A stretch of 21,806 bases of DNA from an uncultured bacterium. Lineage in GTDB: Bacteria; Abyssobacteria; SURF-5. The position numbers and the translations under genes are program-made. The stretch covers positions 49,134 through 70,939 of the forward strand of contig CAZSKP010000020.1 in assembly GCA_964607485.1 (NCBI GenBank), read 5' to 3'. The notes beneath the pieces are model-generated. The model did not search any database and was not told the origin of the DNA. It was given only the letters and a program-made list of their open reading frames with translations. Position 1 is the stretch's first letter; each line of letters begins with the position of its first letter. Shown in pieces: positions 828-17,546 of the stretch.

Positions 828-844
828 ATGAGATGTTTTTCCCC

Positions 845-870
845 GTAACCTTTCGGGACTCTTTGCGTAG
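845..870 (+). promoter_or_regulatory. Putative ECF-dependent promoter (-35 GTAAC, -10 CGTAG) upstream of the kinase gene
   Basis: AAC at 847-849 and CGT at 866-868 are separated by 16 nt, matching the general ECF consensus AAC-N16/17-CGT. It lies in the short gap between the ECF stop and the kinase start. Confidence 0.6.
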
Positions 871-910
871 AGAGTAAGTGGAGAGAGGAGCCGGAAAGGA
901 GAGACTAACA

Positions 911-3900
911 ATGAGCACTGCAGGCAAATGTTCAGAATGCGGCGCCGAACTACCTGCAGATCATGGACTTAGAGGTCTGTGCCCGCGCTGCTTGCTCGTG
1001 CTGGGCTTGGGGGTTGACGACACGGCCGACCCGAAAACCATTGGCGCCTACGAGATTGAGCGTCTGCTCGGTCGCGGCGGCATGGGCGTCGTCTACAAGG
1101 CGCGCCAGGTGTCCCTCAACCGCATCGTCGCCCTCAAAATCCTCAACCCAACACTGAGCAGCGATCCCGCTTTTGTCAAGCGATTCCATCGCGAAGCACA
1201 GGCGGTGGCCCGTCTGAACCATCAGAACATCGTCCACATTTACGATATCGGCGAAGAGAACGGGATGCACTTCTTCAGCATGGAATATGTGAAGGGCCGG
1301 CTGCTTAGTGAGATCCTGGACAAGGAGGGATTCCTGAGAGTGGGCCAGGCGGTGGACATCATCTTTCAGGTAGCGAGAGCGCTGAGATACGCCCACTCGA
1401 AGAACATCATACATCGCGATGTCAAGCCGTCCAACATCATCGTCGACCGGCTGAGCAGGGTGAAGGTCATGGACTTCGGGCTGGCGAAGCTCGGCGGCAA
1501 CACGCGGCTCACCAGGACCGACACTGTGCTGGGAACGGTGAAATACATGTCACCCGAGCAGGCGCGCGGAGAGACGGTCGACCATCGGACGGACATCTGG
1601 TCGATGGGGATCGTGCTCTATGAGATGCTCGCGGGCATGACTCCGTTCAAGGCGACGAACGAGGCGGCGCTGATACACAAAATTATCTACGAACCTGTCC
1701 CGGACCTGAATGACCTCAGTCCGGAGACGCCACCGCAACTGCGGGCGATTGTGGCCAAGACGATGGCAAAAGATAAGAATGAACGCTACCAGAGCGTTTC
1801 CGACTTCCTGAAGGACCTGCAGACTCTCAAGGCTCCTCGACCAACAAAAGGCGACACGCTTTTTGAAAAAGCCGGGGGGTATCTCGAGAAACTCATCGCC
1901 TTTTCGCGCAAGAAGGATGTTCGCCGCAAAGTGCTGGTGCCGCTAGCGCTCGCAGCAGTCATTTTTGTGGGATATCTTGCATATTCCAAGTGGTCGGAGC
2001 AAAGAGGCCCAGCCCCCGAGGATATGGTCCTGATTCCCGCCGGCGAATTCATGATGGGAGCTTCTCCGGGCATGGTCCATCAGCATGAGACCCCACAACA
2101 CCGCGTGTTTCTCGATGCTTTCTATATCGACAAATTTCCCGTCACCAATATGCAGTTTCAGAAGTTCGTGGATTCAACGGGCTATGTAACGGATGCAGAG
2201 AAACGGGGATGGTCAAATGCTCCAGAGGAAAAGCGGGCCGACCAGATTAAAGCGAATGGCGCAAACTGGCGCCATCCGCGAGGGCCCGAAAGTGACATAA
2301 AGGACATAATGAACCACCCGGTTGTTCATGTTAGCTGGAATGATGCTCATGCGTACGCCAAGTGGGCCAATAAACGCTTGCCAACTGAGGCGGAATGGGA
2401 GAAGGCGGCAAGGGGCACCGATGGGAGGAAGTACCCCTGGGGCGACGGTGAGCCTGATGGAACCCGGTGCAACTATGCAGACAGGAACACAGCTTTCGGT
2501 TGGAGAGACAGTAGCGTAGATGATGGATATGAATACACCTCTCCAGTCGGACGATACGAGAATGGCAAAAGTCCATATGGTATATACGATATGGCGGGCA
2601 ACGTGTGGGAATGGTGCTCTGACTGGTACGATAAGGATTACTTCAGCAAAAGCCCTAAAGATAACCCGAAGGGTCCTGCGAACGGCCAGCATCGCGTGAT
2701 CCGGGGAGGCGGGTCGTGGCACGACGGCGCCGATTATATGCGATCAACAAACCGTGGTCCACGCCAACCAGCATTCGTGAGTTCCGACCAAGGCTTTCGG
2801 TGCGCCAAGGGTGTGCCGGGAGCGAAAGTGACCGAGGTTGCGGCTAACTTTGACGACGGATTGCCCGCCGGATGGGCTCTCTATGGGACAGCCGCCGTCG
2901 AAAACGGACAGATAGTCTTGACTCCCAATCTACACAACCAGGCTGGAAGTATATTCTATAATACTCCCGTTCCTCATTGTTCACATTTCGAGGTTTCATT
3001 CGATTTCGAGATTGTAGGATTTGCCGATGGATTTGCGTTCGCATGGGTCCCAGGACCTGAGTTCATCGGCGGGGACGGAGCAGATCTTGGCTATGAAACA
3101 TTGCAGGGGTATGCCGTGGAGTTTGATGTGTATTGTGACCGAAACTACGACCCACCCCGTTCTCATATTGCGTTGATCAAGGATGATGTTCGCCGGCATC
3201 TGGCGTCTTCAATGGACTTCCCCACTCTGAACAATTCAGGCAAGTTCTCCTGTAATATCGTTTTTCTGAATTCAACAATACGCGTATACTTGTCAAATCC
3301 GCAGGCAGGACTGGCGGAAAAGAAATTGGTGCTCGAACACACGATTTCCGACTACGAACCATTTACGGCATATCTTGGTCTCACGGGGGCGACGGGCGGA
3401 GTATCCGCGAGGCACGTAATAGACAACGTGAGAATGTCTGCCCCATTCCAAGCGACTCGAAAGCGGCTGAAAGGGGAAAAGAAAAGTGGCGAACGAAAGA
3501 TGACTTCCCAAAAAACCGAAACCATGGACACGCATGCACACCCCCAGTTAGCCCGGGCCAAGAGATTGGCAGAGGAGGAAAAGTGGGATGAAGCCTTGAC
3601 CGCCTATACCCAGTTGGCCGACCAGCATCCGGAAAACATTGAGCTGCAAAAAGCAGTGGTATTATTTCTGCATAACGAATATCGAATCGGCAAGAAACTT
3701 GAATGGGCGTCAGCTCCGTTTCGCTCATTTTCCAAAACAATGAGGCGATATGCTGAGAGAGTCATTAAGCTGGATCCCTCCCAGCGCGATATGTATTATT
3801 TTGGCCTTCGCGGATATGAATATGCTGGCCTGCCCATTTCCGAAACAGTCAAAAGGCAATTGGAAAACAACTATGCACGGACTCGTCAAAGATTCCCCGA

Positions 3901-5125
3901 TTGGCAGGGAGTTTTCGGGATGTACACCGAGGCCTTTTCAAATCTTGGTCTTTACGACCTTGCCCTTGGGGTTACCGACGATTGGGAAAATCAGTCGGGA
4001 GAAAGCGCCGGTGTCCTGGTCAACAGGTCGAGAGCGCTTGACGGCCTCGGCAGGCATGAGGAAGCCTATCAATTGGCCCTAAGTGCTTTCAACAAATTCC
4101 CGGATGATGCCTGGTTGGCCGCGCATCTGGCCGATATGCAGTTAGCCCGCGGAAATAAATCACGGGCAATAGAACTCTATAAGAAAGCCGATGAAATCTC
4201 TCCGAACGACCATTTCAAGCAAAAAATTCGGGAGATTAGCCGGCAACAAACAGGCACCTCACCCCCGGAAAAGACTGCGTTATCAAATGAAGACCATGCC
4301 GCCCCCGGCGCAGACGATGACATCGCATTCTGGACACAACCTTCAAAGGAACTATTGGAGAAACTAGAAGAGCCTGTGAGTTTTGAATTCGCGAATGAGC
4401 AAGCAGGAGATGTGATAAGGTTTCTCAGTTCAATAAAGCAGATCACCATTGAGGCAGAACCAAGACTGAAGAGAAGGCGGGTTACGATTCGAGTGGACCA
4501 GAAACGACTCGGTGAGGCGATTGAATTAATAGCGCGCATGCTCCACAGCAAAATTCAGTTAAGATCGCACTTTATATACATAGGGGAGGCCCTCTATCAT
4601 CCGGATATCTCAACCTTTTCACCCGGATTAAGGGCTGAGTTAAGGCAACCTTGCACTTTTGACTTCGAGGAGCAAGAACTCTCAAAGATACTTCTTCTAT
4701 TGAGCAGCATAACACACGGCATCGATTTCTCCACTAGTGAAGAAATCGGCCGAAGGAAAACCAGTGTGACAGCCGTTAAATTATCAGCTTTTGAGTCTCT
4801 GCAAATATTGTGCAGTCAGCATGACCTGACGTTAGAGCAAGACGGAGAAAATTCCTTGATACTCCAAGGTGGAACAAATTCCATTAAAGCCCCAAGAAAA
4901 TTGACTGAATCCCAAGCTGAAGAATGGCCTGAGATCAAGGTTGTATCCGTATTCGACCCGAAACAATCCGGCAACTACGTATGTATTATTGAAATGAATG
5001 GACGGAGAAGATTCGTCAAGGAAGGCGACGAATTTTCTGATTTGCGAGTCCTGCGAATTGATGGAACAGAGAATTGCATTACCGCATCGCATCCCTCTTT
5101 GGGAGAGAGGACGTTTTGTGAGTAG
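911..5125 (+). CDS. Multidomain transmembrane Ser/Thr protein kinase: Zn-ribbon, Hanks kinase, TM, FGE-sulfatase (SUMF1-like), L-type lectin, TPR, 2x STN/secretin-N0-like, PilP/GspC-like beta domain
   Basis: ATG 911 follows AAGGAG (the ORF track starts at GTG 878). CSEC..CPRC 929-991. Kinase motifs LGRGGMGVVY, VALK, HRDVKPSN, DFG, GTVKYMSPE, DIWSMG. TM VLVPLALAAVIFVGYLAY ~1931-1984. FGE motifs IPAGEFMMG, PVVHVSWNDA, RLPTEAEWEKAARG, DMAGNVWEW, GFRC ~2015-2809. Lectin motifs LTP..QAGSIFY, ADGFAF, AVEFD, GLTGATGG ~2846-3430. TPR-like helices ~3540-4240. STN-like repeats ~4364-4585 and ~4640-4866. C-terminal RFVKEGDEFSDLRVLRID. Confidence 0.92.
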   Translation: MSTAGKCSECGAELPADHGLRGLCPRCLLVLGLGVDDTADPKTIGAYEIERLLGRGGMGVVYKARQVSLNRIVALKILNPTLSSDPAFVKRFHREAQAVARLNHQNIVHIYDIGEENGMHFFSMEYVKGRLLSEILDKEGFLRVGQAVDIIFQVARALRYAHSKNIIHRDVKPSNIIVDRLSRVKVMDFGLAKLGGNTRLTRTDTVLGTVKYMSPEQARGETVDHRTDIWSMGIVLYEMLAGMTPFKATNEAALIHKIIYEPVPDLNDLSPETPPQLRAIVAKTMAKDKNERYQSVSDFLKDLQTLKAPRPTKGDTLFEKAGGYLEKLIAFSRKKDVRRKVLVPLALAAVIFVGYLAYSKWSEQRGPAPEDMVLIPAGEFMMGASPGMVHQHETPQHRVFLDAFYIDKFPVTNMQFQKFVDSTGYVTDAEKRGWSNAPEEKRADQIKANGANWRHPRGPESDIKDIMNHPVVHVSWNDAHAYAKWANKRLPTEAEWEKAARGTDGRKYPWGDGEPDGTRCNYADRNTAFGWRDSSVDDGYEYTSPVGRYENGKSPYGIYDMAGNVWEWCSDWYDKDYFSKSPKDNPKGPANGQHRVIRGGGSWHDGADYMRSTNRGPRQPAFVSSDQGFRCAKGVPGAKVTEVAANFDDGLPAGWALYGTAAVENGQIVLTPNLHNQAGSIFYNTPVPHCSHFEVSFDFEIVGFADGFAFAWVPGPEFIGGDGADLGYETLQGYAVEFDVYCDRNYDPPRSHIALIKDDVRRHLASSMDFPTLNNSGKFSCNIVFLNSTIRVYLSNPQAGLAEKKLVLEHTISDYEPFTAYLGLTGATGGVSARHVIDNVRMSAPFQATRKRLKGEKKSGERKMTSQKTETMDTHAHPQLARAKRLAEEEKWDEALTAYTQLADQHPENIELQKAVVLFLHNEYRIGKKLEWASAPFRSFSKTMRRYAERVIKLDPSQRDMYYFGLRGYEYAGLPISETVKRQLENNYARTRQRFPDWQGVFGMYTEAFSNLGLYDLALGVTDDWENQSGESAGVLVNRSRALDGLGRHEEAYQLALSAFNKFPDDAWLAAHLADMQLARGNKSRAIELYKKADEISPNDHFKQKIREISRQQTGTSPPEKTALSNEDHAAPGADDDIAFWTQPSKELLEKLEEPVSFEFANEQAGDVIRFLSSIKQITIEAEPRLKRRRVTIRVDQKRLGEAIELIARMLHSKIQLRSHFIYIGEALYHPDISTFSPGLRAELRQPCTFDFEEQELSKILLLLSSITHGIDFSTSEEIGRRKTSVTAVKLSAFESLQILCSQHDLTLEQDGENSLILQGGTNSIKAPRKLTESQAEEWPEIKVVSVFDPKQSGNYVCIIEMNGRRRFVKEGDEFSDLRVLRIDGTENCITASHPSLGERTFCE

Positions 5126-5563
5126 GGTAGACTGAGACTGACCACCCAAAACGAGTTCGCATGGACAAATAATCTCAGGTTAAACGGCCGCGGATAGTTG
5201 TCAATGGTTTCACTTTTCCACTCCCTCTGAAAGTGTAATTATCACCCATCCTATCGTTCAAATATCGCCCTTGGCGAGTGCATAATACGTTTTCAAATCT
5301 GCATTCTTAAATCGCTTGCTTTTATGCTGTTCCAAGTCCTCAGCCGCCGAGGACTATCTTTTGACCGGAGCGAACACACGAGACACAGAAAAGGACTTCA
5401 CGCACAAGGAAGATTGTGCTGGTTTTTTGTGCCGGTTTGCAGTCAGCTCTGTGCTTTTCATGTCATCCAGTGGCAAAACCAAGCCCTTTTTGGAGCATCA
5501 CATCTTCATGTCCAGTCTACTGTTGGCAGGGATTGTCTTTCAATGGCCGTATCTTTAGGATAG

Positions 5564-5607
5564 CACTCGTAATGAGGGGGTCAGGGGTTCGAGTCCCCTC
5601 TCCAGCT
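5564..5607 (+). pseudogene. 3' half of tRNA-Thr(CGT); probable attachment (att) site scar of an integrative element
   Basis: Anticodon loop CTCGTAA 5566-5572, 3' anticodon strand TGAGG, variable GGGTC, perfect T-arm AGGGG-TTCGAGT-CCCCT 5583-5599, acceptor 3' strand CTCCAGC 5600-5606 plus discriminator T. No GCTGGAG 5' acceptor strand or D-arm upstream. The anticodon stem pairs for only 2 bp. Confidence 0.85.
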
Positions 5608-5614
5608 CTTTGCT

Positions 5615-5648
5615 ATCGGGGCACTCTTATGAGTGCCCTGATCTTTTT
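5615..5648 (+). terminator. Intrinsic (rho-independent) terminator downstream of the tRNA fragment
   Basis: 12-bp stem ATCGGGGCACTC / GAGTGCCCTGAT (one G-U), TTAT loop, followed by CTTTTT. Confidence 0.85.
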
Positions 5649-5667
5649 GTGGGGCAAATGGTGGCAA
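5649..5667 (+). repeat. Tandem G(G/T)GGCAA direct repeat, possible integrase arm-type sites
   Basis: GTGGGGCAAA TGGTGGCAA directly after the terminator. Related motifs are GTGGCAAA at 5470-5477 and TGGTGGCAAA at 17632-17641. Confidence 0.35.
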
Positions 5668-5984: not shown

Positions 5985-6013
5985 TTGTATTTAAAGCAAT
6001 TGCATGATATAAT
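5985..6013 (+). promoter_or_regulatory. Sigma70 promoter with extended -10 for the five-gene signalling cluster
   Basis: TTGTAT (5985-5990), 17-nt spacer, TG at 6005-6006, TATAAT (6008-6013), in an AT-rich context. Confidence 0.8.
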
Positions 6014-6119
6014 TTTTTCCTCATTGATACGACCCGGCCCATTGTCGATAGGCCTTAGCGTGCCAGATTGATGATATCCTCCCTTCAGAAAGAGGAGGTC
6101 GGGAGAGGCTTTGGGGATT

Positions 6120-8762
6120 ATGGGAATGCAACGCTCGCACCGGCGGATTTTTCGGGTTCCCCACCTGCTGAGAGTCCTGGTCGTTCACCTCATGTTTCAA
6201 ATCCTTGTTACATCCATCCCTTTCCAGACAACTGCAGAGGAACTTGCCTCCGATAGAAAGCCGGGCCCGCCCACGCAAAGCTCTGCTTTCGTGTACGTAA
6301 TCGACAAATCCTCGAGCATGCTCAGGACTTTTGACGCGCTGAAGGAAACCCTGAGAAAGGCAATCGGGAAATGCGGTTCCGACGACAGCGTCTCCATATT
6401 GGTTTTCGGCGACAACGTGACGTTATTAGCCAGTTACAAATCCATGAATGAATTCAAGAAAGACGCCGTGCTGAAGCTTCTGGATTCCGTCTCTGCCGAT
6501 GCACTCTACACAAATTTGGGACTGGCAATCGATCAGGGGACCCAATGTCTGTATGATCGCTTCTGTGAGGAACAGGCGGAAGACTATACCTTGATACTCG
6601 TAACCGATGGCAAGGATCATCCCTCGCCCAATTACGTTCGGAAGAGAACCATTGAAGATTCCATCACTCAGTTTCCCGATTTTCTTCCGGGGCAGCAGTG
6701 GTCGCTCCGTTACATTGCTTTGGAGGGCCAAATAGACCCGCAACTGTTCGAGCTCGTGAGAAAATATGACGGGAGCTTCTTTGATGTGGAAAAGATCGCT
6801 CATCTGGCGAGCATGGACGACGGCGAAGTGATCGAGAGCATAATCGGTGATCCCGAACAATGGGAGAGTCTCCACGCCTTCATAATCGACCATTTGGGTG
6901 AAGTGCAGATAAAGCGGGAGGGTGAGGAACTGTGGTTCTCAATTTCGAAGGACGGCCCGCAAAGAATTTTCCCTCACGATGAAGTAAGGATATCCTCTGG
7001 ATCGAAAGCCGTCATTAGTTTTGGACCAATTGGGAAAGTTGGCATGGAGGAGAATAGCCAGGCGAGTCTCGAGACCCTGCAGGCCCTGCCTGTGAGAAGG
7101 TCCAGCGCGGTTGAGATTACATTGGACAGGGGAACGCTCTGGAACGCTGTAACCGCGTCGCCGGGTTCATCACTCACTTACGAAGTACTGACTCCCATCG
7201 CTCTCACGGGTCTGAGAGGAACTGTTGTCAGGGTGGCTTTCGACGACGCAACGCTTAACCAAAACATTGCAGTGTTGGAAGGAATAGCAGAGATCAGTTC
7301 GCTGGAGGAAGAGCCTGTATTCGAAGAGTTTGACCTTGAGTTGGGATACTATTCGGCAATATCTCCGGGGGAAAAGCCTTCCCCGCCCAAACCAATTCCT
7401 GAAGAAATTCTTCGTGAATGGGAATTATGGAAGGAGATCCTGCGGGGAGAAGCTTCCCTTTCGCAACTGGCACTCGGAGCGAGACAATTTCTCACGGCCC
7501 GTCTGGATAAGACGAAGATGATCCTGGGTTCGTTGGAATCGGGCAAGGTCTGCACTGATAAGCTGACGCTGAAGCTCGAAGGCCATCTGCCGGTCGAGGG
7601 AATGGAAATTCGAGCAGTCCCAGACATTTCGTTGCCACACGGCGTTTCGTGCAGCGCAAGTGTGAATCTGAACCACATGATGAAAGAAGCAGAAATCGTG
7701 GTCACCGCCGAAGTGAACGAAGGCGTTCACCTTCCGGATGGTAAGACATGGGATGGCGTGTTGGCTCTTGGAAGTTCGGTCAAGAACGTCTCCTTTTCGA
7801 ATAATCCCATCCCGTTGAGGCTGTTTCGTGAAAAGGAGAAGAAGATTGGGAGCGGAGCGGGTCGCCATTCCTTTTTGGGAGAGGTTTCGGTTTGGGAGTG
7901 GTTGATGGCGAATTGGAAATGGATGGGTTTTCTCGTTGCGATCCCGGTGTATTTTTTCTTTTTGGTACTCGCCGAGCGGCAAAGGCGGTATGGAGCCCAT
8001 GCCAGGAGGTTCATACCCCTGGAGGGGTGGCTCCTCGTGCTGAGCTCACCCAGGGACTCCGACATCGAGAATATCGACCTCAAGGCTCTCAGCCTGAAAT
8101 CAAAGAAGTCTGTCTTGATTGTCGGCAGACATCCGGCTTGCGATATCCGCATCTCCCACTCCACTGTCGATAAGAGCCACGCCCGGCTGCGTCCCAGCCG
8201 AGAGGGCGTTCCTGCTTCGGTGTATATAGACGGTTTGGAGCTTAACGATGTTAAGGTCAACGACTTCATTACCAACAAAGAGGTTGTGCTTAAGGATAGA
8301 GATATTGTTGACATCGGAGCCTTTAAATTTATGTACACAACCTCTTACCTCAAACAGGTCGTAGTCCATTACAATGACGGAGATACCAGATATGGGACCC
8401 TCCTGACGTGGAACATGGAAGACGAAGGCTTCGTGCTTCGTCCTATGAGCGAACCTCCTGACGACAACCCTTGTTATATCCCATTCGCCGACCTAAAAGG
8501 AGTCTTCTTCGTCAAGGATTTTGACAAGGAAATCGCACGAAAGATCAAATCCTCAGATATCTACACGAAGAAACATCATATCGTCGTGGAATTCCCGGAC
8601 GGCGAGACAATCGAGGGGTATACCGTGCATGACTATGATCCAAAGGCTCCCCGGTTCTTCCTGGTTCCAGAGCTGAAGAAGGATGAAGAAGGGAACAACG
8701 TGTACATCCTTGTGGAGAGAAGCTCTGCGAAAAAAATCAACATTGTGGCCGAGCCGGCCTGA
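6120..8762 (+). CDS. Single-pass membrane protein, paralog A: signal, vWA, FecR domain, beta-rich domain, TM, FHA, tandem Sm-like (DUF6982-like) domains
   Basis: Start is uncertain (TTG 6111, ATG 6120 or ATG 6126). Basic then hydrophobic N-terminus. vWA MIDAS DKSSS 6303-6317, YTNLGLAI, LILVTDG. FecR motifs GEVQIKR, SGSKAVISFG, LDRGTLW, YEVLTPIALTGLRGTV, AVLEG. TM ~7914-7973. FHA IVGRHPACDIRI..VDKSHARL. C-terminal VVVHYNDG..YGTL, LKGVFFVKDF, VEFPDGETIEG, FFLVP..GNN. Confidence 0.85.
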   Translation: MGMQRSHRRIFRVPHLLRVLVVHLMFQILVTSIPFQTTAEELASDRKPGPPTQSSAFVYVIDKSSSMLRTFDALKETLRKAIGKCGSDDSVSILVFGDNVTLLASYKSMNEFKKDAVLKLLDSVSADALYTNLGLAIDQGTQCLYDRFCEEQAEDYTLILVTDGKDHPSPNYVRKRTIEDSITQFPDFLPGQQWSLRYIALEGQIDPQLFELVRKYDGSFFDVEKIAHLASMDDGEVIESIIGDPEQWESLHAFIIDHLGEVQIKREGEELWFSISKDGPQRIFPHDEVRISSGSKAVISFGPIGKVGMEENSQASLETLQALPVRRSSAVEITLDRGTLWNAVTASPGSSLTYEVLTPIALTGLRGTVVRVAFDDATLNQNIAVLEGIAEISSLEEEPVFEEFDLELGYYSAISPGEKPSPPKPIPEEILREWELWKEILRGEASLSQLALGARQFLTARLDKTKMILGSLESGKVCTDKLTLKLEGHLPVEGMEIRAVPDISLPHGVSCSASVNLNHMMKEAEIVVTAEVNEGVHLPDGKTWDGVLALGSSVKNVSFSNNPIPLRLFREKEKKIGSGAGRHSFLGEVSVWEWLMANWKWMGFLVAIPVYFFFLVLAERQRRYGAHARRFIPLEGWLLVLSSPRDSDIENIDLKALSLKSKKSVLIVGRHPACDIRISHSTVDKSHARLRPSREGVPASVYIDGLELNDVKVNDFITNKEVVLKDRDIVDIGAFKFMYTTSYLKQVVVHYNDGDTRYGTLLTWNMEDEGFVLRPMSEPPDDNPCYIPFADLKGVFFVKDFDKEIARKIKSSDIYTKKHHIVVEFPDGETIEGYTVHDYDPKAPRFFLVPELKKDEEGNNVYILVERSSAKKINIVAEPA

Positions 8763-8968
8763 TGCGCGGATCCGGGGAAAAGAAGATGGTCTCAATATGG
8801 GCGATCGATAGCCGGTTCACGTCATGGCCTTGATCCTCGCTGCCATGGGAAATCCCAAGGGCGGAACTGCACATTTGTCTGGGTTGACGCCGTGGAGCAC
8901 ATCGTCGATTTCTGCAAATGGCATCCTCGCGTCATTAGGTGGCAGGAGCGTAACGGTCGGAAGGGGAC

Positions 8969-11632
8969 ATGTATTCTGGGCGGCCATACAGCTTTATGAC
9001 TGTCGTTGTGAGTGTTTTCACAGCGTGCCTGATTTTTCTCGCTGCTTTCCCCTTGATTCCGTCTGCAACATTCGGGGAAGAACTTGACCCTCCAACGGAA
9101 TTTGGACAAGCACGAGGCGGTTCAGCCATCGTGTATCTAATCGATAAGTCATCGAGCATGCTTTGGGTATTTGATGAGTTAAAGGGGATCGTAAAGAAAG
9201 CCATAGACCAACGCGGACCCGAGGACAGCATTTGCATCATCGTCTTTGGCGATTCCGTAACTACGTTGGCCTCGTACAAACACTTGGACGACTCAAACAA
9301 GGCAGCTCTGTCGGGGCTTCTTGATTCCGTCTATGCGGATGCCCTGTACACAAATTTGGAGCTTGCGATCGATCGAGGGATCCAACATCTGCACACTTAT
9401 TTCTGTGATCATATGGCGGAAAATTATACACTGGTTCTCATAACCGACGGCAAGAACCATCCGCCGCCCGGACATATTCGCGAGCGATCCCTGGAAGAGG
9501 CAGTGACTCAGTTCTCGGATTTTCTTCCCGGAAAGCAGTGGTCGCTGGGTTACGTTGTTCTAGAGGGTCGGCTCGATCCGGAATTGCTGACCCTTCTGGG
9601 GAAATACGAGGGCAGAATCCTCGATGTCGATGAAATCGCTCAAACATCCGAGGCAACCGGCGACGAAGTCCTAGCGAGCATCATTGAGCATCCGGAAGAC
9701 TGGATATCATTTGAGGCCGTACTCGTGGACCATACTGGCGAGGTGAACGTGAGGGGGCCGGAAGGGGACCGGTGGGTTGCAATTCCGAAAGGGGCCACTC
9801 CGGAATTGCTCGCTGGAGATAGCGTGGCCGTATCTGCTGGCTCAAAGGCGGTCATCAGCTTCGGGTCGCTTGGGAGAGTGGGACTTGAGGGAACCACTGA
9901 GATTAATCTGAACAGGCTGAAGAAGATGCCTCTGGAACAATCGAGCGTCATCCAACTCAGGTTGGAGAACGGCACTCTCTGGAATACCGTAAAGGGTCCC
10001 ATGGCTGGCGAGGTCACTTACGAAGTGCTAACTCCTATCGCCTTGACAGGTGTAAGAGGCACGGTTTTCAGGATATCTCTCGACAGCCAAACATTGGAAC
10101 AGACCATCGCGGTCCTTGAAGGAACGGTCGAGACAAGCTCCTCCGAAGAGCGCCCCAGTTTCGAGAGCTTCACTCTGACCGATGGAAACTTTTCAATATT
10201 CTCTTCAGGTGCAAAACCCTCCTCGCCCCTGCCCATACCGAAGGATATGATCCTTCAATGGGAAAGATGGAGGAAAGCCTTACAAAAGAAAGAGCCCCTT
10301 TCGCACATCAATTTTCAAACAGTGCTGATCACACCAGCCGAGGGAAAGCTTGTAATGGGACCGATAAAACCCGGTATGAAGTTCAGCAAAATGGTCCCGC
10401 TCACATTGAGCGAAGAGTACCGTGGGAAAGCGCCTATCTCGGCGAAAGTGGTGATCGACTTGCCCCCGGGAGCCAACATAAAGGTTGACGTCATCGATAA
10501 AGATGATAGCAAACTGGAGAAAAATCTGTCAGTCAATCTCCAGTGCCAACCTTTTCTCAGGTATGCCGGGGCAAAGGAATACAACGGCAAGATCAGGCTC
10601 ATGTGCTCCAGTGACGATGTCAGATTCACCGAGCCGGAAGTGGAACTTCAAATACTTCATTCCCCTCCCAGATTTGGCCTCTGGGGAGGCGACTATTCGA
10701 CTCTCACAAAGAATCTTATCCTGGCAGCCGCTGTGTTGTCAACGCTGTTCATCATCTTCGTGATATGGAAGAAGAGGGATGCGTTTCTTAAACTCAAAAA
10801 GTGGGAGAGGAGAGTTATCGACTATATCCGACAGAAGGTCATCAAGACGAAGTTCATTCACTTATTCCGAGCCAGACCCACAGGACAACTCGTGTTGCGA
10901 GGTTCGTCACCGGACGGGCATCGAAAACTGTTCAACTTGGCTGAAATATCTCTTCACAGCAACGAAGTCGTCCTCGGCATCGGCTCGGACCCGTCGAATG
11001 CAATTTCCCTTTCTCACTCTTCGGTCCGTCCGTTCCACTGCACCATCTGGGCTGGTCGAAGAAGAAATCCGACAAGAGTTTACATCAACGCTCTTGCAGG
11101 GGGACATTTGGCCGTAAATGGCGACCAGATTGCGCACACTCAGGAGGTCAAAGACAAAGATGTGATCGCAATCGGAGACTATGAATTCGAATTCGTTGAC
11201 ACTCAGCTCTATCGCCAGGTCGAGGTCCATATGAACAATGGGACAGTCTATGAAAGCACGCTGGAATACTGGGATCTTAACCATAGCGTCTTCTATATCA
11301 GACAGACCCTGCAAGATCACGATTGCACACTTGCTGTTCCGTTTATGGATGTCTCTCACATACATTTTTATCAGGATGAGAGCGCGCGCGATATAGGCGT
11401 CCTGCCACACCCGTTACGTGCTTACCGAGCAAAGCGCAAGAGTCTCGCTAAAGTCACCCTCAGAAGCGGACAGAAGCTGAAGGGATTCAAATATGGGAAA
11501 TATCGCCATGAGGACTCGCCCGGAATCTTTCTTCTGCCGCCTTCTTCTGAAGAATCAAGGATTCAATACACGTATATACCGAAAACCAGCATCGAAACTT
11601 TCGTGATTGTGGACAGTTATCGAGCCCATTGA
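8969..11632 (+). CDS. Single-pass membrane protein, paralog B: signal, vWA, FecR domain, beta-rich domain, TM, degenerate FHA, tandem Sm-like domains
   Basis: Same architecture as paralog A. DKSSS 9143-9157, YTNLELAI, LVLITDG. YEVLTPIALTGVRGTV. TM LILAAAVLSTLFIIFVIW 10715-10768. FHA-like LGIGSDPSNAISL..VRPFHCTI..VNG..KDKDVIAIG. Sm-like VEVHMNNGTVYESTLEYWD and AKVTLRSGQKLKG. Purine-rich SD GGAAGGGGA upstream. Confidence 0.85.
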   Translation: MYSGRPYSFMTVVVSVFTACLIFLAAFPLIPSATFGEELDPPTEFGQARGGSAIVYLIDKSSSMLWVFDELKGIVKKAIDQRGPEDSICIIVFGDSVTTLASYKHLDDSNKAALSGLLDSVYADALYTNLELAIDRGIQHLHTYFCDHMAENYTLVLITDGKNHPPPGHIRERSLEEAVTQFSDFLPGKQWSLGYVVLEGRLDPELLTLLGKYEGRILDVDEIAQTSEATGDEVLASIIEHPEDWISFEAVLVDHTGEVNVRGPEGDRWVAIPKGATPELLAGDSVAVSAGSKAVISFGSLGRVGLEGTTEINLNRLKKMPLEQSSVIQLRLENGTLWNTVKGPMAGEVTYEVLTPIALTGVRGTVFRISLDSQTLEQTIAVLEGTVETSSSEERPSFESFTLTDGNFSIFSSGAKPSSPLPIPKDMILQWERWRKALQKKEPLSHINFQTVLITPAEGKLVMGPIKPGMKFSKMVPLTLSEEYRGKAPISAKVVIDLPPGANIKVDVIDKDDSKLEKNLSVNLQCQPFLRYAGAKEYNGKIRLMCSSDDVRFTEPEVELQILHSPPRFGLWGGDYSTLTKNLILAAAVLSTLFIIFVIWKKRDAFLKLKKWERRVIDYIRQKVIKTKFIHLFRARPTGQLVLRGSSPDGHRKLFNLAEISLHSNEVVLGIGSDPSNAISLSHSSVRPFHCTIWAGRRRNPTRVYINALAGGHLAVNGDQIAHTQEVKDKDVIAIGDYEFEFVDTQLYRQVEVHMNNGTVYESTLEYWDLNHSVFYIRQTLQDHDCTLAVPFMDVSHIHFYQDESARDIGVLPHPLRAYRAKRKSLAKVTLRSGQKLKGFKYGKYRHEDSPGIFLLPPSSEESRIQYTYIPKTSIETFVIVDSYRAH

Positions 11633-14523
11633 TGTTCATGCGACCAAATCCAACAAAAGTTGCACGAAGCACGGAACACGGGATGACCGAAAACACTCAA
11701 GAGTCGAAAGTCGGCCGATTTTCCGCCGTGCGAAAGCATTACGGGGTCGTGATTGCCGTTTCCTCCTGGCTACTGATCGTCGTGCTCGGGCTTTTTTTTC
11801 ACGGGCCCTTCATGGAAATGGAAAACAAGCTCCTTGATATCCGGATGCGTCTTCCCCATAAGGCGAAAGCCTGCGATCAAATTGTCTATGTTGATATCGA
11901 CGATAAAAGCATAGCTCTTTTTGGAAGGTGGCCCTGGAACCGCTCGCTGATGGCCGAAATTCTTCAAGCGCTCCGACGTGCGAATATTGTGGGAATGTTT
12001 CCCGATTTTCTCATCGCCGAAGAGACAACGGTCAGGGATGACCTCGCCCTTGTTCATGCGGTAGAGGACAGCGGAAACATATTCTTGGGCGCGGCGTTCC
12101 AGCTCCAACAAGCCGATGAACATCCAACACAATCAGAGCCCGTCGACGGGATTCTGAAAGGATTCCGTTATGACCTTAGAGTCAACACCGATAGCAAAGC
12201 AATGAGAGCCACAAGGGCGCTCGCTTCCCTTCCTTCGCTTATGGCGGTGGTTGCTGGAACTGGACACATCAGTTTCGTGCCTGATGAAGACGGAGTAGCC
12301 AGAAATCTGCCCCTCTTCGTTGACCTGGAAGGTCGGTATTTCCCTTCGATCGACATCGAAGTGGCCCGTTGGCTCCTTCAAGTCGAGCGAGAAAAAATCG
12401 AGATCGTTCCGGGAAGATATGTGGTTCTGAGGGAAGCGCTGACGCCCGGCCTTACTGAAAGGAAGGATGTCTTCATCCCGGTGGACGCACAAATGCGGAT
12501 TCTTATCAACTACGCAGGCCGGTGGGGCGAAGCCTTCAAACACTATCCGATCCACGCGATACTCAGAGATCTGCTTTCTGACGATCCACTTGCGAGAGAA
12601 AAGGCGAAGAGCTTGCTTGACGGCAAGTTTATTGTTCTATCCGCCGCTTTCACGGGCGGCGCGGATATGGGGCCAACTCCGCTCCAGCCTCTTGTGCCCC
12701 TGTCGGAAATCCATGGGCATGTCATAAGCTCAATCGTGAACCAACAATTTCTGAGACACGTTCCGTCTTCGGCGACCATGCTCATCGCTCTCCCACTCTG
12801 CCTGGTGTTGGGTCTGTTATCGCCAAGGTTGAAGACCTTGCGCCTTTCAGGTCTCAGCGCCTTGATGCTCGCTCTATGGGTAGTAACGGCATTTGTTCTG
12901 TTCGCAGCCGCTGGATACGTTGTTGATATCGTTTGGCCGGGCGCGGCCATAGTGCTCTCGTACGCGGGCTGCGCCGGACGCATGCACTGGAAGACGGAAC
13001 GTGAGCGAGCATCACTCCGGAGGGCCTTCTCCCAATATGTTTCGCCCGACGTGCTTTCTCAAATACTCGTTGAGCCGCGCAGGCTCGTCCTCGGGGGCGA
13101 ACGAGTCAACTTGTCGATTCTGGTGCTGGTCTTCGAAAAATTCGAACGATTCTCTGAAAATGCAGAACCGGAGGAGATCATCGAACTGCTCACGGCTTTC
13201 TACGATAAGACGTGCGAATGGATCTTGAAACACGGGGGTACCATCGATAAGTTCACGAAAGACGGGCTGATTGCATTCTTCGGCGCTCCGTTGAAGCAGG
13301 ACAAACATTTGGAATCGGCGGTGAGGGCCGCCCTGTCGATCAGGCGGGAAGTGGCCGAGCTGATTACGTCAAGGAGCCGGCGAGGAGAAAAAACGGTCGG
13401 CGTGAAAATGGCGATACACTCGGGCTTCGCCACCGTGGGAAACATCGGGTCTCCGAAGAGGATGGACTATACGGTAATCGGAAGGAACGTGAACCTGTGC
13501 ATTGCAATGGCCGAGTCCGCTACAGACGGCCAAATACTCGTGACACGCAAGACTCACCAAAGCGTGGAAAGCCTCGTTGACGCGAAAGAATGCGGAGAAG
13601 TCAGACTTTCCGCATATCCGAAACCCTTTTTCATTTTTGACATCATCGGTCTGAAGGATGCATTGCAACATGTCCCCGTGCCGACGATCATCCCAACCGT
13701 CGAAATGCGCGAAAAGAAATTCCTGGGTCCCTACACGTTGACCGAGAAACTTGGAGTGGGCAATACGGGAACGGTCTACAAGGGATACGATGAACAATTG
13801 GACCGCCAAGTCGCTATCAAGGTGCTTTCCCCAGGTTTGCAGAAAGACAGGCTGCAACTAATCGCAGAAGAGGCAAAGACGCTCGCGAAGTTGAGTCATC
13901 CCAATGTTGTACAGGTTTACTATGCGGGAGAAGAGGATGGGATCGGATTTCTGGTGATGGAATTGGTGGATGGAGGCAACCTGAGAGAGTTGATAAACAC
14001 CGAGGGGGCTCTCTCGGTGAGCCATGCGCTCGACATTATCACCCAGACCTCCCGCGGACTGAACGCTGCACACAAGCGGGGAATAACTCACCGCGATATC
14101 AAGCCCGCCAATCTCCTGCTGAACAATTACGACATTGTCAAGGTCACAGACTTCGGACTTGCCGGCGAAAAGATTTTCAGACAAAGAGCAGAACGACGCA
14201 TAGCCGGAACATTCCAGTACATGTCGCCCGAACAGGCCCAAGGACTCAAGACAGACTGCAGAAGCGACATATACGCCCTGGGGATTACGTTCTTTCACTT
14301 ACTCGCTGGAGAGGTTCCCTTCAAATCGGACAGCATCGCCGGTCTGATATGGCATCATGCCGAGTCCCAGCTCCCCATTGAACCCCTCAAGAAACAGGGG
14401 GTTCCAGACTCAGTAATCAGGCTGGTTCAAAAGATGACGGCAAAGCTTCCCGGCGAGAGATTCGCCAACTACTTGGAATTACTCGAGGAGCTGGATAAAC
14501 TAGAGCTTCAAATTGACGGATAG
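11632..14523 (+). CDS. CHASE2 sensor, 3 TM, degenerate class III nucleotide cyclase, Ser/Thr kinase fusion
   Basis: ATG 11632 overlaps the upstream stop (TGATG); ATG 11683 is an alternative start. N-terminal TM. CHASE2 motifs IVYVDIDDKSI..GRWPWNRS, PDEDGVARNLPL, GKFIVL, EIHGHVISSI. Three hydrophobic helices. AFSQYVSPDV linker. Cyclase fold GGTIDKF..DGLIAFFGAP, VGNIGS..RMDYTVIG. Intact kinase motifs LGVGNTGTVY, VAIK, HRDIKPAN, DFG, GTFQYMSPE. Confidence 0.92.
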   Translation: MFMRPNPTKVARSTEHGMTENTQESKVGRFSAVRKHYGVVIAVSSWLLIVVLGLFFHGPFMEMENKLLDIRMRLPHKAKACDQIVYVDIDDKSIALFGRWPWNRSLMAEILQALRRANIVGMFPDFLIAEETTVRDDLALVHAVEDSGNIFLGAAFQLQQADEHPTQSEPVDGILKGFRYDLRVNTDSKAMRATRALASLPSLMAVVAGTGHISFVPDEDGVARNLPLFVDLEGRYFPSIDIEVARWLLQVEREKIEIVPGRYVVLREALTPGLTERKDVFIPVDAQMRILINYAGRWGEAFKHYPIHAILRDLLSDDPLAREKAKSLLDGKFIVLSAAFTGGADMGPTPLQPLVPLSEIHGHVISSIVNQQFLRHVPSSATMLIALPLCLVLGLLSPRLKTLRLSGLSALMLALWVVTAFVLFAAAGYVVDIVWPGAAIVLSYAGCAGRMHWKTERERASLRRAFSQYVSPDVLSQILVEPRRLVLGGERVNLSILVLVFEKFERFSENAEPEEIIELLTAFYDKTCEWILKHGGTIDKFTKDGLIAFFGAPLKQDKHLESAVRAALSIRREVAELITSRSRRGEKTVGVKMAIHSGFATVGNIGSPKRMDYTVIGRNVNLCIAMAESATDGQILVTRKTHQSVESLVDAKECGEVRLSAYPKPFFIFDIIGLKDALQHVPVPTIIPTVEMREKKFLGPYTLTEKLGVGNTGTVYKGYDEQLDRQVAIKVLSPGLQKDRLQLIAEEAKTLAKLSHPNVVQVYYAGEEDGIGFLVMELVDGGNLRELINTEGALSVSHALDIITQTSRGLNAAHKRGITHRDIKPANLLLNNYDIVKVTDFGLAGEKIFRQRAERRIAGTFQYMSPEQAQGLKTDCRSDIYALGITFFHLLAGEVPFKSDSIAGLIWHHAESQLPIEPLKKQGVPDSVIRLVQKMTAKLPGERFANYLELLEELDKLELQIDG

Positions 14524-14568
14524 CGTCTGTCTCAGGATTCGACATCGCTGGAGGGGCCGGCCAAGAAA

Positions 14569-15909
14569 ATGATTTACGGTATAGGACACATACTCGACCA
14601 AGAATTTCGCGTTGTCAACGTCCACGAGGGCGGCATGGCACTCGTGTATATTCTTGAGGATACAAGAACCGGAGACAAGATAGCGGCGAAGACGATACGC
14701 GAAGAACTCCTGAGCGATGCTTCGATGGTTGCTCGGTTCAGGCGCGAAATGAAGATCTGGGTGGGTATAGGCAGTCACCCCAATGTTGTTCGGGCTTTCT
14801 TCGTGAAAAACATTGAGTCCTGTCCTTTCCTCTTTATGGAATACATGGATAAGGGATCGCTTCTTGAGCTTACCAAGTCGAGTGACCCTTTCCCTATCAG
14901 TCAGATTTTGACTATCGCCCGGGCGATAGCAGAAGGAATGAGCCATGTGCACAACCGGCTTACCCCCGATGGACTGCGTGGAATAGTTCACCGCGATCTC
15001 AAACCGTCTAACATACTGATGAACAAAGAGGGGGAGATCAAAGTGGCGGACTTCGGAGTGGCGCGAGCGCTCGACACGACCCTCCTCACGCGAACACTTG
15101 ATGTGGTAGGGACCATTCATTACAGCTCGCCGGAACAGATTCTCGACTCGCGAAACGCAGACAAGCGAGCCGACGTTTACTCCTTTGGGGCCATTCTGTA
15201 CCATGTTGCGTGCGGCACGCCTCCGTTTGAGGGGACAACGTGGATGCATCTGGTGAACAAGATAAGAACGTTTACGCCTCCTTCGCCCACAGAAGTGCGA
15301 AGCGATATCCCCGAACCGTTTTCTCGGATTACGATGAAATGCCTGGCGAAACAGAAGGAGGACCGGTTTGAGAATTTTGAGGAAATCATTTTGGCCTTGT
15401 CAGAACTGATTTCGGAAAAGGAAGAGGGCGGAAAGAAAGCGGATCGCGCCACAGCAAGGGAGTTGAGCAGAATACTGGACCTGGCGGAAAAAGAGGCTGT
15501 GAAAAACGGGTGTGCTTTCGTGGAGCCGGTCCATCTCTTGTTGGCGGTCGTATCGGCGAATACGGAATCTCTTTCGGCATGGCTGAAAGATGTGCGGATA
15601 GACTCGGACAAGCTAGCAAGCCGTATTCGCGAACTCATCGGACGGACGGAACAAGCCCCTCCCCCGAGTGATGTGACGCTCAAGCGTTCATCCCGAAGGG
15701 TCATCGGGCTGGCTCAGAGTTTGGCTGAACAGGAGAAGCTCCGGAATCCGTGTGGTAGGCATATATTGAGAGCGTTGATTCAGGAAACCTCGGTCCGCGA
15801 GATACTGGCGAATGGCCTGAGCCTGGATGGCAGCGAAGGCGTCGAAACGGAAACGCTTTTCGATGAAATAGAGGAGGGGTTCGAGCCTCCTCACATAGAT
15901 GACTTGTGA
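14569..15909 (+). CDS. Cytoplasmic Ser/Thr kinase with C-terminal Clp N-terminal (Clp repeat) domain
   Basis: Kinase motifs EGGMALVY, IAAKT, HPNVV, HRDLKPSN, DFG, GTIHYSSPE, DVYSFG; no TM. C-terminal two-repeat pattern RILDLAEKEA..FVEPVHLLLAVV and RRVIGLAQSLA..CGRHILRALI resembles Clp_N. Confidence 0.88.
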   Translation: MIYGIGHILDQEFRVVNVHEGGMALVYILEDTRTGDKIAAKTIREELLSDASMVARFRREMKIWVGIGSHPNVVRAFFVKNIESCPFLFMEYMDKGSLLELTKSSDPFPISQILTIARAIAEGMSHVHNRLTPDGLRGIVHRDLKPSNILMNKEGEIKVADFGVARALDTTLLTRTLDVVGTIHYSSPEQILDSRNADKRADVYSFGAILYHVACGTPPFEGTTWMHLVNKIRTFTPPSPTEVRSDIPEPFSRITMKCLAKQKEDRFENFEEIILALSELISEKEEGGKKADRATARELSRILDLAEKEAVKNGCAFVEPVHLLLAVVSANTESLSAWLKDVRIDSDKLASRIRELIGRTEQAPPPSDVTLKRSSRRVIGLAQSLAEQEKLRNPCGRHILRALIQETSVREILANGLSLDGSEGVETETLFDEIEEGFEPPHIDDL

Positions 15910-15941
15910 TGTGGTTTCGTTTGAACTGGTGATCATAGATT

Positions 15942-17546
15942 ATGGCTGTGCTTAGAATTCTAGCTCCCGCTGAACTTCAGGACGATTTTCAGATTGGCCA
16001 GAGGATATTCACGCTGGGCCGTTCCCCCGACAACACTCTTCAGATAGACCGACCCACCATAGCTCGCGTGCATGCGTCGATCATATGTGAGGGAAAAAGA
16101 TACCTTCTGATCGATCACTCCAGCAGACACGGAACATTTGTGGACGGCGATAGAATTGACAGGAGAGTGCTATCCTCCGGCAACCGAATCGCACTGGGCA
16201 AGCACGCCGAATTGCTATTTTCAATCCCAAGTCCCGAAGCCGACACCCGGGTCGGCCAGCGGGTCGTCGTGACGAAGGACCAGGCGAAGGACCCCATTTC
16301 AGACATTCAGAAGAGAATGACGCTGGAAGAGGCCGGATTTGACTACAAACAGGGCATTCCTGCCAAGACATTTGAGGCTGAATCAAGGGGAAGATATCTC
16401 TCGACAATCTATCAGGTCAATCAGACCATAACCGAAATCTTTGACCTCAGTGAACTGGCCAACAGGGTTCTCGATCTGATACTCCAGATCTTTGCGGTTG
16501 ATAGAACCGCCATCATCCTGTATGACCAGGAGGCACAACATCCATATCCCATCGCGTTCAAAGCCAGAAAGGAGATCCACGGCTCCAGCCCAATCAACAT
16601 CAGCCAGACAATTATCAGAAAAGCGATCTTCGAGGGAAGTGGGATCTTGGCGAGCGATACATATATTGACGACCGCTTCAAAGACGTCTCCAGCATCATG
16701 CGTAAGCAGATTCGGTCAGTAATGTGTGTGCCGCTCCACACAAAGGGGAAGATTCTGGGGGCGATATACGCCGACGCTCTCGAAGTCCCAGGGGGATTCT
16801 CTGAGGAAGACCTTCGTCTGTTGTTTGCCGTTGGAGGAGCGCTTGCAAACTCGATTGAGAACGCGTGGCTGGTTGACATAATAAAGAAGGAGGAGCGGAA
16901 ACTGAGCACCCTCGAGCGATATCTTCCCTCAGTTGTCCTCGAGCACTTGCTCCAGCAGCAGGATCCAACAAAGCTGGGGGGAAAAACCGTTTCCATCTCC
17001 ATTTTGTTCGCGGACATTCGGGGTTTTACCCTCCTGACGGAACGAACCAGTTCAGCGGACGTTGTCTTTCTTCTGAACGACTATTTCACGTCGATGTCGG
17101 AGATTGTTTTCGAATATGGTGGCACGCTGGGCGAATACATTGGTGACGAAATCATGGCCTACTTCGGAGCGCCAATTGAATGTGAGGATCATGCCTCGCG
17201 AACGATTTCTGTGGCCACGAAAATGATGGAGAGGATGAGATTGCTCAAGAATCACAGAAGGGAGGCTGGATTGCCTGTCTTCGACATCGGAATCGGAATC
17301 GCCACGGGAGCCGTCATAGCGGGCAACATTGGCTCGGCCAAGCAAATGAAGTACACGGTCATCGGGAATACGGTCAATCTGGCCAAGAGATTGTGCGATT
17401 ACGCGCAACCAGGGCAAATACTGATCGACGCGGATGCGTATCACGTCGCCGAAAAACCGTCGAACGTTCGTTTTCTCGAGAGAGTAAATCTCAAGGGAAT
17501 CTCAAGGCCGGTGGCAGTTTACGTGGTTGAGCAGAACATCGACTAA
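15942..17546 (+). CDS. FHA-GAF-class III nucleotide cyclase (predicted guanylate-cyclase-like specificity)
   Basis: FHA FTLGRSPDN..IARVHASI..DHSSRHGTFVDG. GAF IRSVMCVPL..GKILGAIYAD..FSEEDLRLL. Cyclase SILFADIRGFT, GEYIGDEIMAYFGAP, GNIGS..KYTVIGNTVNLAKRL with both metal Asp residues and the Asn/Arg pair intact. Confidence 0.92.
   Translation: MAVLRILAPAELQDDFQIGQRIFTLGRSPDNTLQIDRPTIARVHASIICEGKRYLLIDHSSRHGTFVDGDRIDRRVLSSGNRIALGKHAELLFSIPSPEADTRVGQRVVVTKDQAKDPISDIQKRMTLEEAGFDYKQGIPAKTFEAESRGRYLSTIYQVNQTITEIFDLSELANRVLDLILQIFAVDRTAIILYDQEAQHPYPIAFKARKEIHGSSPINISQTIIRKAIFEGSGILASDTYIDDRFKDVSSIMRKQIRSVMCVPLHTKGKILGAIYADALEVPGGFSEEDLRLLFAVGGALANSIENAWLVDIIKKEERKLSTLERYLPSVVLEHLLQQQDPTKLGGKTVSISILFADIRGFTLLTERTSSADVVFLLNDYFTSMSEIVFEYGGTLGEYIGDEIMAYFGAPIECEDHASRTISVATKMMERMRLLKNHRREAGLPVFDIGIGIATGAVIAGNIGSAKQMKYTVIGNTVNLAKRLCDYAQPGQILIDADAYHVAEKPSNVRFLERVNLKGISRPVAVYVVEQNID

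Follow-up and report, generated by a model that had tools for sequence, protein, structure and literature searches.

A cluster of five co-oriented signalling genes was analysed in a window of 21,806 nucleotides (nt) from an uncultured bacterium of the SURF-5 lineage (assembly GCA_964607485.1, contig CAZSKP010000020.1, positions 49,134 to 70,939 of the forward strand). The genome holding this window is termed G000 and its contig C20, the genomes of relatives are G001, G002 and so forth. The cluster is probably, though not securely, a lineage-specific, conserved transmembrane Ser/Thr-kinase signalling module with an inferred relay to a cyclase that may well produce cyclic GMP (cGMP). The core of the module is a gene pair, coding for a receptor-like R protein and a CHASE2 receptor kinase. 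A soluble kinase and an FHA-GAF cyclase with glutamate in its specificity site (Glu-type) are frequent accessories. R1 and R2 denote genes 1 and 2. The cluster comprises the following features (window positions; aa, amino acids):

6111-8762, plus strand: R1, 883 aa, with an in-frame ATG at 6120; by Pfam and hydropathy a signal/anchor helix, a vWA domain (aa 61-167), a FecR-like domain (aa 290-392), a transmembrane helix (aa 604-622), an FHA domain (aa 670-736) and DUF6982 (aa 748-880).
8969-11632, plus strand: R2, 887 aa, built like R1 and paralogous to it (37 % identity), with an FHA domain that lacks the Arg of the GR motif.
11629-14523, plus strand: gene 3, CHASE2 receptor kinase, 964 aa, the longest open reading frame (ORF) starting with TTG at 11629; first transmembrane helix (aa 39-57), periplasmic CHASE2 domain, three transmembrane helices (aa 380-449), degenerate cyclase domain (aa 495-661) and Hanks kinase domain (aa 702-945).
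13111-13611, plus strand: the degenerate cyclase-homology domain of gene 3, first metal-binding Asp replaced by Val or Ile, as aligned to solved CyaB.
14569-15909, plus strand: gene 4, soluble Hanks kinase, 446 aa; by Pfam a Hanks kinase domain (aa 20-268) and a tail resembling the Clp N-domain (aa ~300-409).
15942-17546, plus strand: gene 5, FHA-GAF-cyclase, 534 aa; FHA (aa 24-86), GAF (aa 168-305) and class III cyclase (aa 351-530) with a Glu-Thr specificity pair.

The ORF coordinates confirmed the arrangement that a preliminary description of this DNA had given: five co-oriented genes with gaps of 206 nt between R1 and R2, 45 nt between genes 3 and 4 and 32 nt between genes 4 and 5, and a 1-nt overlap of the R2 stop codon TGA (11630-11632) with an ATG of gene 3 at 11632. 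Pfam and residue alignments also upheld its inventory: two kinases, three FHA domains, and an intact beside a degenerate cyclase domain.

The recurrence of the genes was studied in 11 genomes of the phylum, 10 of them from the family. The submitter labels of the homologue-bearing records vary and include Hydrogenedentota, Zixiibacteriota, Lindowbacteria and Abyssubacteria. Full-length orthologues of the CHASE2-cyclase-kinase protein (54-63 % identity) were present in five of the 11 genomes, and in all five an R gene adjoins the kinase gene, four times co-oriented and once divergent. This adjacency is kept across five genera at 40-63 % protein identity. The gene order is R1-R2-kinase in G001, where the contig ends, R1-kinase-soluble kinase-cyclase in G009 and R2-kinase-cyclase in G004; G002 has a divergent R1 and then kinase-soluble kinase. 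Of the five genomes with the CHASE2 kinase, four have an orthologue of the cyclase (56-66 % identity) and four one of the soluble kinase (49-60 % identity), one soluble-kinase orthologue lying elsewhere in its genome; neither was found in the other six genomes. The upstream genes for an extracytoplasmic function (ECF) sigma factor and a 1415-aa kinase and the downstream GH4 and TetR genes were not found at the loci of the relatives; thus the block that is conserved begins with R and ends with the cyclase. The gene-neighbourhood comparison called for in the preliminary description therefore turned out in favour of a recurrent unit, with R beside the CHASE2 kinase and the accessories only in genomes that have this kinase. 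That unrelated signalling genes came together by chance is very improbable: the density of such genes is very high in these genomes, but the adjacency across five genera, the 1-nt overlap of R2 and kinase and the common phyletic pattern of the accessories all speak against it. The cluster is not a chance neighbourhood.

Gene 3 was recognised by Pfam as CHASE2 (142.5 bits, cut-off 26.3, aa 49-396), Guanylate_cyc (a weak match of 47.7 bits) and Pkinase (173.8 bits). In the CHASE2 family, one transmembrane helix precedes the sensor and three follow it, then comes the cytoplasmic output. The hydropathy peaks of gene 3 at aa 39-57, 380-398, 409-427 and 423-449, with the cyclase and kinase domains behind them, fit this layout, so that score and topology both place the protein in PF05226. 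All Hanks catalytic motifs are present in the kinase domain, and 10 of 10 homologues share the residues K731, D823, N828, D841 and T861. An active class III cyclase has two metal-binding Asp and an Asn-Arg pair; the receptor domain lacks this set. Its first metal-binding Asp is Val or Ile in all five orthologues, which bears out the designation as degenerate in the preliminary description. The transition-state Arg is kept in three of the five (Ala in G000, His in G004), and the domain retains the Lys, the Thr, the second acidic residue (Asp) and mostly the Asn, lost in G004. The combination of CHASE2, cyclase and kinase is rare: a database of 5.8 billion clusters held 10 clusters of this form, all at least 55 % identical to gene 3, and the next matches were plain CHASE2-cyclases with at most 31 % identity. 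When metagenomes were scanned with the receptor-kinase alignment, the 35 loci obtained all encoded distant CHASE2 proteins (23-33 % identity), and the three-domain form was not among them. A scan of a genome collection gave 4 loci, one of them (L032:9513-12788) on a chromosome labelled Candidatus Zixiibacteriota. There the gene is split between two frames, one with the CHASE2-cyclase part (705 aa) and one with the kinase part, and the upstream DUF6982 ORF has only 132 aa; the gene is either a decayed copy or affected by assembly frameshifts.

Both R proteins have the Pfam architecture VWA_2, FecR, FHA and DUF6982. Hydropathy indicates an N-terminal signal/anchor helix, an ectodomain of ~560 residues, a single transmembrane helix and a cytoplasmic tail, and the extracytoplasmic position assigned earlier to vWA/FecR and CHASE2 was borne out. 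The metal-ion-dependent adhesion site of the vWA domain (DxSxS...T...D) is intact, D65, S67, S69, T134 and D166 being invariant in 16 of 16 members of the R family. The latter comprises 19 clusters in the database of 5.8 billion clusters. The FecR domain (PF04773) scored 26.2 bits in R1 and 32.2 bits in R2 with a cut-off of 24, and it is also present in the R orthologues of G002, G003, G004 and G009. FecR-type anti-sigma factors carry an N-terminal cytoplasmic anti-sigma domain ahead of the transmembrane helix. The R proteins depart from this layout: they begin with a signal/anchor helix and the vWA domain, and their cytoplasmic part is a C-terminal FHA-DUF6982 unit. Below threshold, NCBIfam matched the FecR region of R2 (aa 280-394) with Lsa33 and LipL45, two surface proteins of Leptospira.

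The products of genes 4 and 5 are without transmembrane helix. Gene 4 was recognised by Pfam as Pkinase and Clp_N (39.7 bits), and its tail had a sub-threshold NCBIfam match to the ClpB N-terminus (aa 300-409). The kinase motifs AAK, HRDLKPSN, DFG and SPE are present, the Gly-rich loop is atypical. The ClpN domain of the preliminary description was found again by Pfam in gene 4, but in only one of the four orthologues, and a search of the cluster database (Atlas) with the soluble kinase gave generic kinase clusters, none with Clp_N. Gene 5 matched FHA (60.9 bits), GAF and Guanylate_cyc (100.2 bits). Its cyclase keeps both metal-binding Asp and the Asn-Arg pair (FADIRGFT, IGD, TVNLAKR), conserved in three of three orthologues, and the same three orthologues have Glu at the position of the adenylate cyclase Lys and Thr at the second specificity site. 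Glu also occupies this position in 2w01, the best match among solved structures; we take 2w01 to be Cya2, although the match table names it only 'adenylate cyclase'. According to the available excerpts of PMC4215837, in guanylate cyclases Glu takes the place of the Lys and the second site is C, S, T, H, A or G, and enzymes of the Cya2 type can bind both substrates. On these residues, gene 5 probably makes cGMP and less likely cyclic AMP (cAMP), as the preliminary description had suggested for an intact cyclase. A paralogue of gene 5 (34 % identity) that is found throughout the phylum has a Lys-Thr pair; judged from the residues, the Glu-type cyclase is a specialised paralogue of this Lys-type enzyme. 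The Lys-type FHA-GAF-cyclase has homologues in 10 of the 11 genomes. On contig C16 of G000 (L069:4148-6696) its gene codes for 585 aa and is followed after 20 nt by a gene for a PP2C phosphatase of 256 aa, a neighbourhood that ties this type of cyclase to Ser/Thr phosphorylation.

The two cyclase domains of the cluster may also be seen as one enzyme. The degenerate domain of the receptor would then pair with the catalytic domain of gene 5, as C2 does with C1 in animal adenylate cyclases, and control cyclic nucleotide (cNMP) synthesis directly. The pairing could change the substrate, the receptor contributing Lys and Thr and the soluble enzyme the metal site. The pattern of retained residues is C2-like, since Lys, Thr, second Asp, Asn and, in three of five orthologues, Arg are kept and only the first Asp is lost in all, and both domains share their best-matching solved cyclases. 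On the other hand, G000 and G004 have lost the Arg and G004 the Asn as well, the search of G002 (77 % complete) gave no cyclase orthologue, and the dead domain could equally be a homodimeric transducer. We regard the pairing as improbable.

For the preferred reading as a kinase module with a relay to the cyclase, the following course is proposed. A ligand or a surface contact would be caught by the vWA/FecR ectodomain of the R protein, which would act on the periplasmic CHASE2 domain. The dead cyclase domain may serve as a dimerising transducer that switches the kinase on. Phosphorylated sites would recruit the FHA tails of the R1-type proteins and the FHA-GAF cyclase, either directly or via the soluble kinase, and the recruited cyclase would make cGMP or, less likely, cAMP. 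Readers of the signal would be cNMP-binding proteins, and a PP2C phosphatase would reset it; the genes for both lie at other places in the genome. In agreement with the preliminary description, the 11 large window ORFs had no Pfam match to a phosphatase, a phosphodiesterase or a cNMP-binding domain. Elsewhere G000 has 11 cNMP-binding domains and, on another contig, one PP2C_2 match, thus readers and reset exist in trans.

Several points weigh against this reading, the first of them residing in the FHA domains. The fold is clear in all three (Pfam 36.1 and 30.3 bits in the R proteins, 60.9 bits in gene 5, cut-off 20.7), and a model of the R1 tail matched solved FHA domains in Foldseek with E 5e-6 and a TM-score of 0.75-0.87 (target-normalised). 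Canonical FHA domains bind the phosphate with the Arg of GR, the Ser of SR.H and the Asn of NG. In alignments to GarA, the Ser is absent from all three domains. Gene 5 keeps GR and has Ala in place of the Ser and His in place of the Asn of NG; R1 keeps GR and has Asp in place of the Ser. The GR Arg is kept by five of six R1-type members and absent in 10 of 10 R2-type members. These losses weaken a simple relay in which FHA reads phosphothreonine, above all for R2, so that from the corresponding premise of the preliminary description the fold remains and the canonical binding residues do not. Second, the Glu-Thr pair is no proof of a preference for GTP. Third, FecR domains were missing in a survey of distant CHASE2 loci, which covered 24 of the 35 metagenome loci after omission of seven near-duplicates and four without usable ORFs: a DUF4384 (often LPP20) protein was the neighbour in 13 loci, a FecR protein in none. 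FecR is therefore not a general CHASE2 partner. Fourth, the genomes are related and the phyletic counts are not independent trials, and G003 has an R2-like gene, but no CHASE2 kinase was found in it. Finally, the mechanism as a whole is read from composition, topology, residues, synteny and phyletic pattern, and the gene set is variable. The soluble kinase is absent from the G004 locus and the cyclase from the G002 locus; in G009 the cyclase has no FHA domain and the soluble kinase is split. The unit of five genes in the preliminary description is accordingly to be narrowed: the pair of R and kinase recurs in five of five genomes, the full set is not fixed across the loci.

The same variability of the accessories is what may be expected if only R and the CHASE2 kinase cooperate. 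The output would then be phosphorylation, e.g., of envelope, adhesion or motility targets, and soluble kinase and cyclase would work independently. The genomes are rich in kinases and cyclases (at least 22 kinase-domain matches and 9 cyclase domains in G000), hence such neighbours are common. A cooperation restricted to the pair is nevertheless rather unlikely, as no orthologue of either accessory was found in a genome without the CHASE2 kinase, their genes follow that of the receptor kinase at short distance in G000, and the Glu-type cyclase is a specialised form of the Lys-type enzyme. We thus retain the module with a relay to the cyclase.

The C-terminal tail of R1 and R2 was described initially as Sm-like. 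It belongs to the Pfam family DUF6982, and its model (pLDDT 83.6, 19 sequences) has two five-stranded small beta-barrels with a helix between them. Matches to known folds were weak (Foldseek E at least 0.026 for tandem Tudor and LSm; VIA Z 3.5-4.8 for Sm, LSm, Hfq and YaeO), and one homologue bears the source name 'snRNP-like'. Two small barrels with a faint Sm, Hfq or Tudor resemblance are therefore what remains of that designation; a strong match was not obtained. A profile search yielded 1272 representatives of DUF6982 (E up to 0.001), and no paper on the family was found in the literature. Domain partners were scanned in 74 of 150 listed rows, chosen by hand and mostly of 200-720 aa, with short stand-alone proteins and most proteins of receptor length omitted. 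FHA was the partner in 20 of these rows, TPR in 14, PilZ in two and MshEN in one; hence FHA-DUF6982 is a recurrent cassette. PilZ and MshEN, to which DUF6982 is fused in other organisms (P0256, P0259, P0279), are receptor domains for cyclic di-GMP. In G000, an AAA_22-DUF6982-TPR protein is encoded within a polysaccharide-export cluster on contig C23 (L028:6244-8634).

G000 has nine DUF6982 matches. Seven are vWA proteins with a transmembrane helix, DUF6982 and in part FHA (760-1088 aa), and only two of these seven have a FecR domain, namely the two beside the CHASE2 kinase. A second pairing of an R-like gene (~770 aa) with a kinase gene (~570-640 aa) directly behind it on the same strand is present in all 10 family genomes, the order being read from match coordinates. 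In G000 (C33:41357-43573; L023:6452-10696), the vWA-transmembrane-DUF6982 gene is followed by a gene for a kinase with a pyrroloquinoline quinone (PQQ) beta-propeller, and the order is the same in G001-G009. Such receptor-like proteins thus pair repeatedly with Hanks kinases that bear an outward-facing sensor. G000 encodes one more CHASE2 protein, a CHASE2-cyclase, and no FecR gene lies beside it. On contig C2 of G000 (81251-96205), 15 kb of the minus strand contain a tandem array of at least seven Ser/Thr kinase-domain matches. Several of the metagenome CHASE2 loci (L033, L035, L042, L045, L049, L053, L061 and others) encode a fusion of CHASE2 and a sigma-54 activator ATPase of ~910-930 aa. 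The gene 5' of it, often overlapping by 4 nt, codes for a protein of ~720 aa with LPP20 and DUF4384, and in some loci a small M23 peptidase gene lies 3'. This looks like another conserved CHASE2 partner system. CHASE2 sensors often have a co-encoded envelope partner, and the type of partner differs between lineages.

The region upstream of R1 was described as carrying one strong promoter. The site in question is:

5985-6013, plus strand: promoter-like site, TTGTAT (5985-5990), a spacer of 17 nt and TATAAT with a TG extension.

The extended -10 element is perfect (TGaTATAAT, 6005-6013), the -35 element TTGTAT fits the consensus in three of six positions, and the consensus may not be that of the host, so that the site is putative. 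It was absent from the list of a consensus scan, and the 14 promoter-like sites of the region are no excess over 10.3 +/- 3.8 in shuffled sequences. The -10 part of the earlier claim is thus retained, the strength is not. ARAGORN and Rfam gave no match within the window, and an NCBIfam scan none above any curated cut-off. At 5560-5650, 460 nt 5' of R1, the 3' half of tRNA-Thr(CGT) is duplicated together with its downstream hairpin (94 % identity over 88 nt); the full gene is located 18.6 kb upstream on the same contig (C20:36073-36147). The segment between the copies contains PLD, FtsH and metabolic genes, the ECF sigma gene and the giant kinase. An origin of the locus as a genomic island was rejected, there being no integrase in the 10 scanned ORFs between the copies and the five genes lying outside the segment. 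The ECF-type sigma gene (78-827) and the gene for the 1415-aa protein occupy window positions 78-5125. The large protein is a Hanks kinase with a transmembrane helix, an FGE-sulfatase domain, a legume-lectin-like domain and TPR repeats.

A role in phage defence or conflict, as a system of the vWA/kinase or the cyclase-signal type, was also considered. PADLOC models for kinases (PD-T4-6, mad6) and the Pycsar cyclase matched the kinase and cyclase domains, and triads of vWA, kinase and phosphatase have reportedly been proposed as stress or conflict modules. The PADLOC 2.0 matches, however, cover generic catalytic domains only, the unrelated upstream kinase scores higher, and R1 and R2 had none. 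By Pfam, the window encodes no nuclease, protease, pore or NADase effector; the flanking segment is free of integrase genes, and the locus is syntenic and vertically conserved. We attach hardly any weight to a conflict role.

For the study of the ligands and partners of CHASE2 sensors, a conserved, co-encoded co-receptor with an intact adhesion site offers a concrete pair. If the reading is true, the dead cyclase of the receptor shows a cyclase fold put to use solely for passing a signal to a kinase, and the kinase-controlled Glu-type cyclase is a rare case of regulated bacterial cGMP synthesis. The FHA-DUF6982 cassette is uncharacterised in spite of the size of the family. The reach of the findings is bounded by the uncultured state of the organism and by the mechanistic steps, which are proposals from sequence.

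Operons of FecR and CHASE2 proteins are known. The available excerpts of PMC5192318 describe a LysM/FecR protein with a CHASE2 histidine kinase, the 'BiofilmReg' system of Burkholderia, and a two-gene form in P. aeruginosa PAO1. In S. meliloti, the FecR-domain protein SMc02177 belongs to the cAMP/Clr regulon that is fed by the CHASE2 cyclase CyaD1 (PMC5498481, in excerpt). The view of the preliminary description that FecR genes often neighbour CHASE2 cyclases is supported by these precedents of FecR genes next to CHASE2 genes. BiofilmReg resembles the present cluster in that the gene of a secreted or membrane-bound FecR-domain protein lies directly 5' of that of a CHASE2 transmembrane sensor, both facing the periplasm. 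Its output consists of a histidine kinase and a response regulator, and its FecR protein, as given in the excerpts, has LysM and no cytoplasmic part. Here, a Hanks kinase is placed behind a dead cyclase, and the FecR protein adds vWA, transmembrane helix, FHA and DUF6982. PpkA-Fha1-TagR-PppA of the H1 type VI secretion system (T6SS) of P. aeruginosa likewise has a Hanks kinase that spans the membrane, a vWA domain outside the cytoplasm, a co-receptor in the periplasm and an FHA protein as docking target, but according to the excerpts of PMC3224232 the vWA domain is on the kinase PpkA itself, FHA on a soluble scaffold, a PP2C gene adjacent and a secretion machine the output. In the cluster of G000, vWA and FHA are on one membrane protein and a cyclase follows; no PP2C phosphatase or T6SS genes were found by Pfam in the window. 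The TerY-P triad consists of vWA, PP2C and kinase, and differs in its PP2C gene.

CHASE2 sensors fused to Hanks kinases are known from cyanobacteria as CHASE2-Ser/Thr kinases, for which the excerpts of PMC2176072 and PMC1262709 report no cyclase-homology domain between sensor and kinase. Class III cyclases with Glu in place of the adenine-specifying Lys include Cya2 (E-G pair) and Pkn2 of M. xanthus (E-T pair), the latter also linking a kinase to a guanylate cyclase-like domain (PMC4215837, PMC1262709). In the excerpts of these sources, Cya2 is without FHA or GAF, and in Pkn2 the kinase precedes the cyclase-like domain in one protein. In the present cluster, the Glu-type cyclase is a separate FHA-GAF protein, whereas the cyclase domain fused to the kinase is dead and of Lys-type. 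An N-terminal FHA domain controls a nucleotide cyclase via a phosphopeptide in DgcB of Bdellovibrio (PMC6733907, in excerpt). DgcB is a GGDEF enzyme with a consensus FHA domain; gene 5 has a class III cyclase, a GAF domain and an FHA domain without the canonical Ser. No published description of this composition was found in the literature, and to this extent the 'undescribed system' of the preliminary description stands. The term overstates the distance from known systems, since each building block is of a known kind: FecR-CHASE2 pairs, CHASE2 kinases and FHA-gated cyclases have all been described. The cluster recombines known elements into a form not found described, and is confined to one small uncultured lineage.

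Animal receptor guanylate cyclases unite an extracellular sensor, a dead kinase-type domain and a live cyclase in one chain, and the receptor of atrial natriuretic peptide (ANP) was among the solved matches of the gene 5 cyclase. Tentatively, and with considerable doubt, the cluster may be viewed as a bacterial mirror image of these receptors: the vWA/FecR co-receptor would gate the CHASE2 receptor, the dead cyclase would act as dimerisation switch, the kinase would signal via the FHA-GAF cyclase to cGMP, and the tandem Sm-like barrels might cluster the complex or add an output. Gene 3 shares with the animal receptors a sensor, a kinase-type and a cyclase-type domain in one chain, one of them catalytically dead. 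The roles are exchanged, however: the animal receptors have a dead kinase and a live cyclase, gene 3 has a live kinase and a dead cyclase, in reversed order and behind an unrelated sensor.

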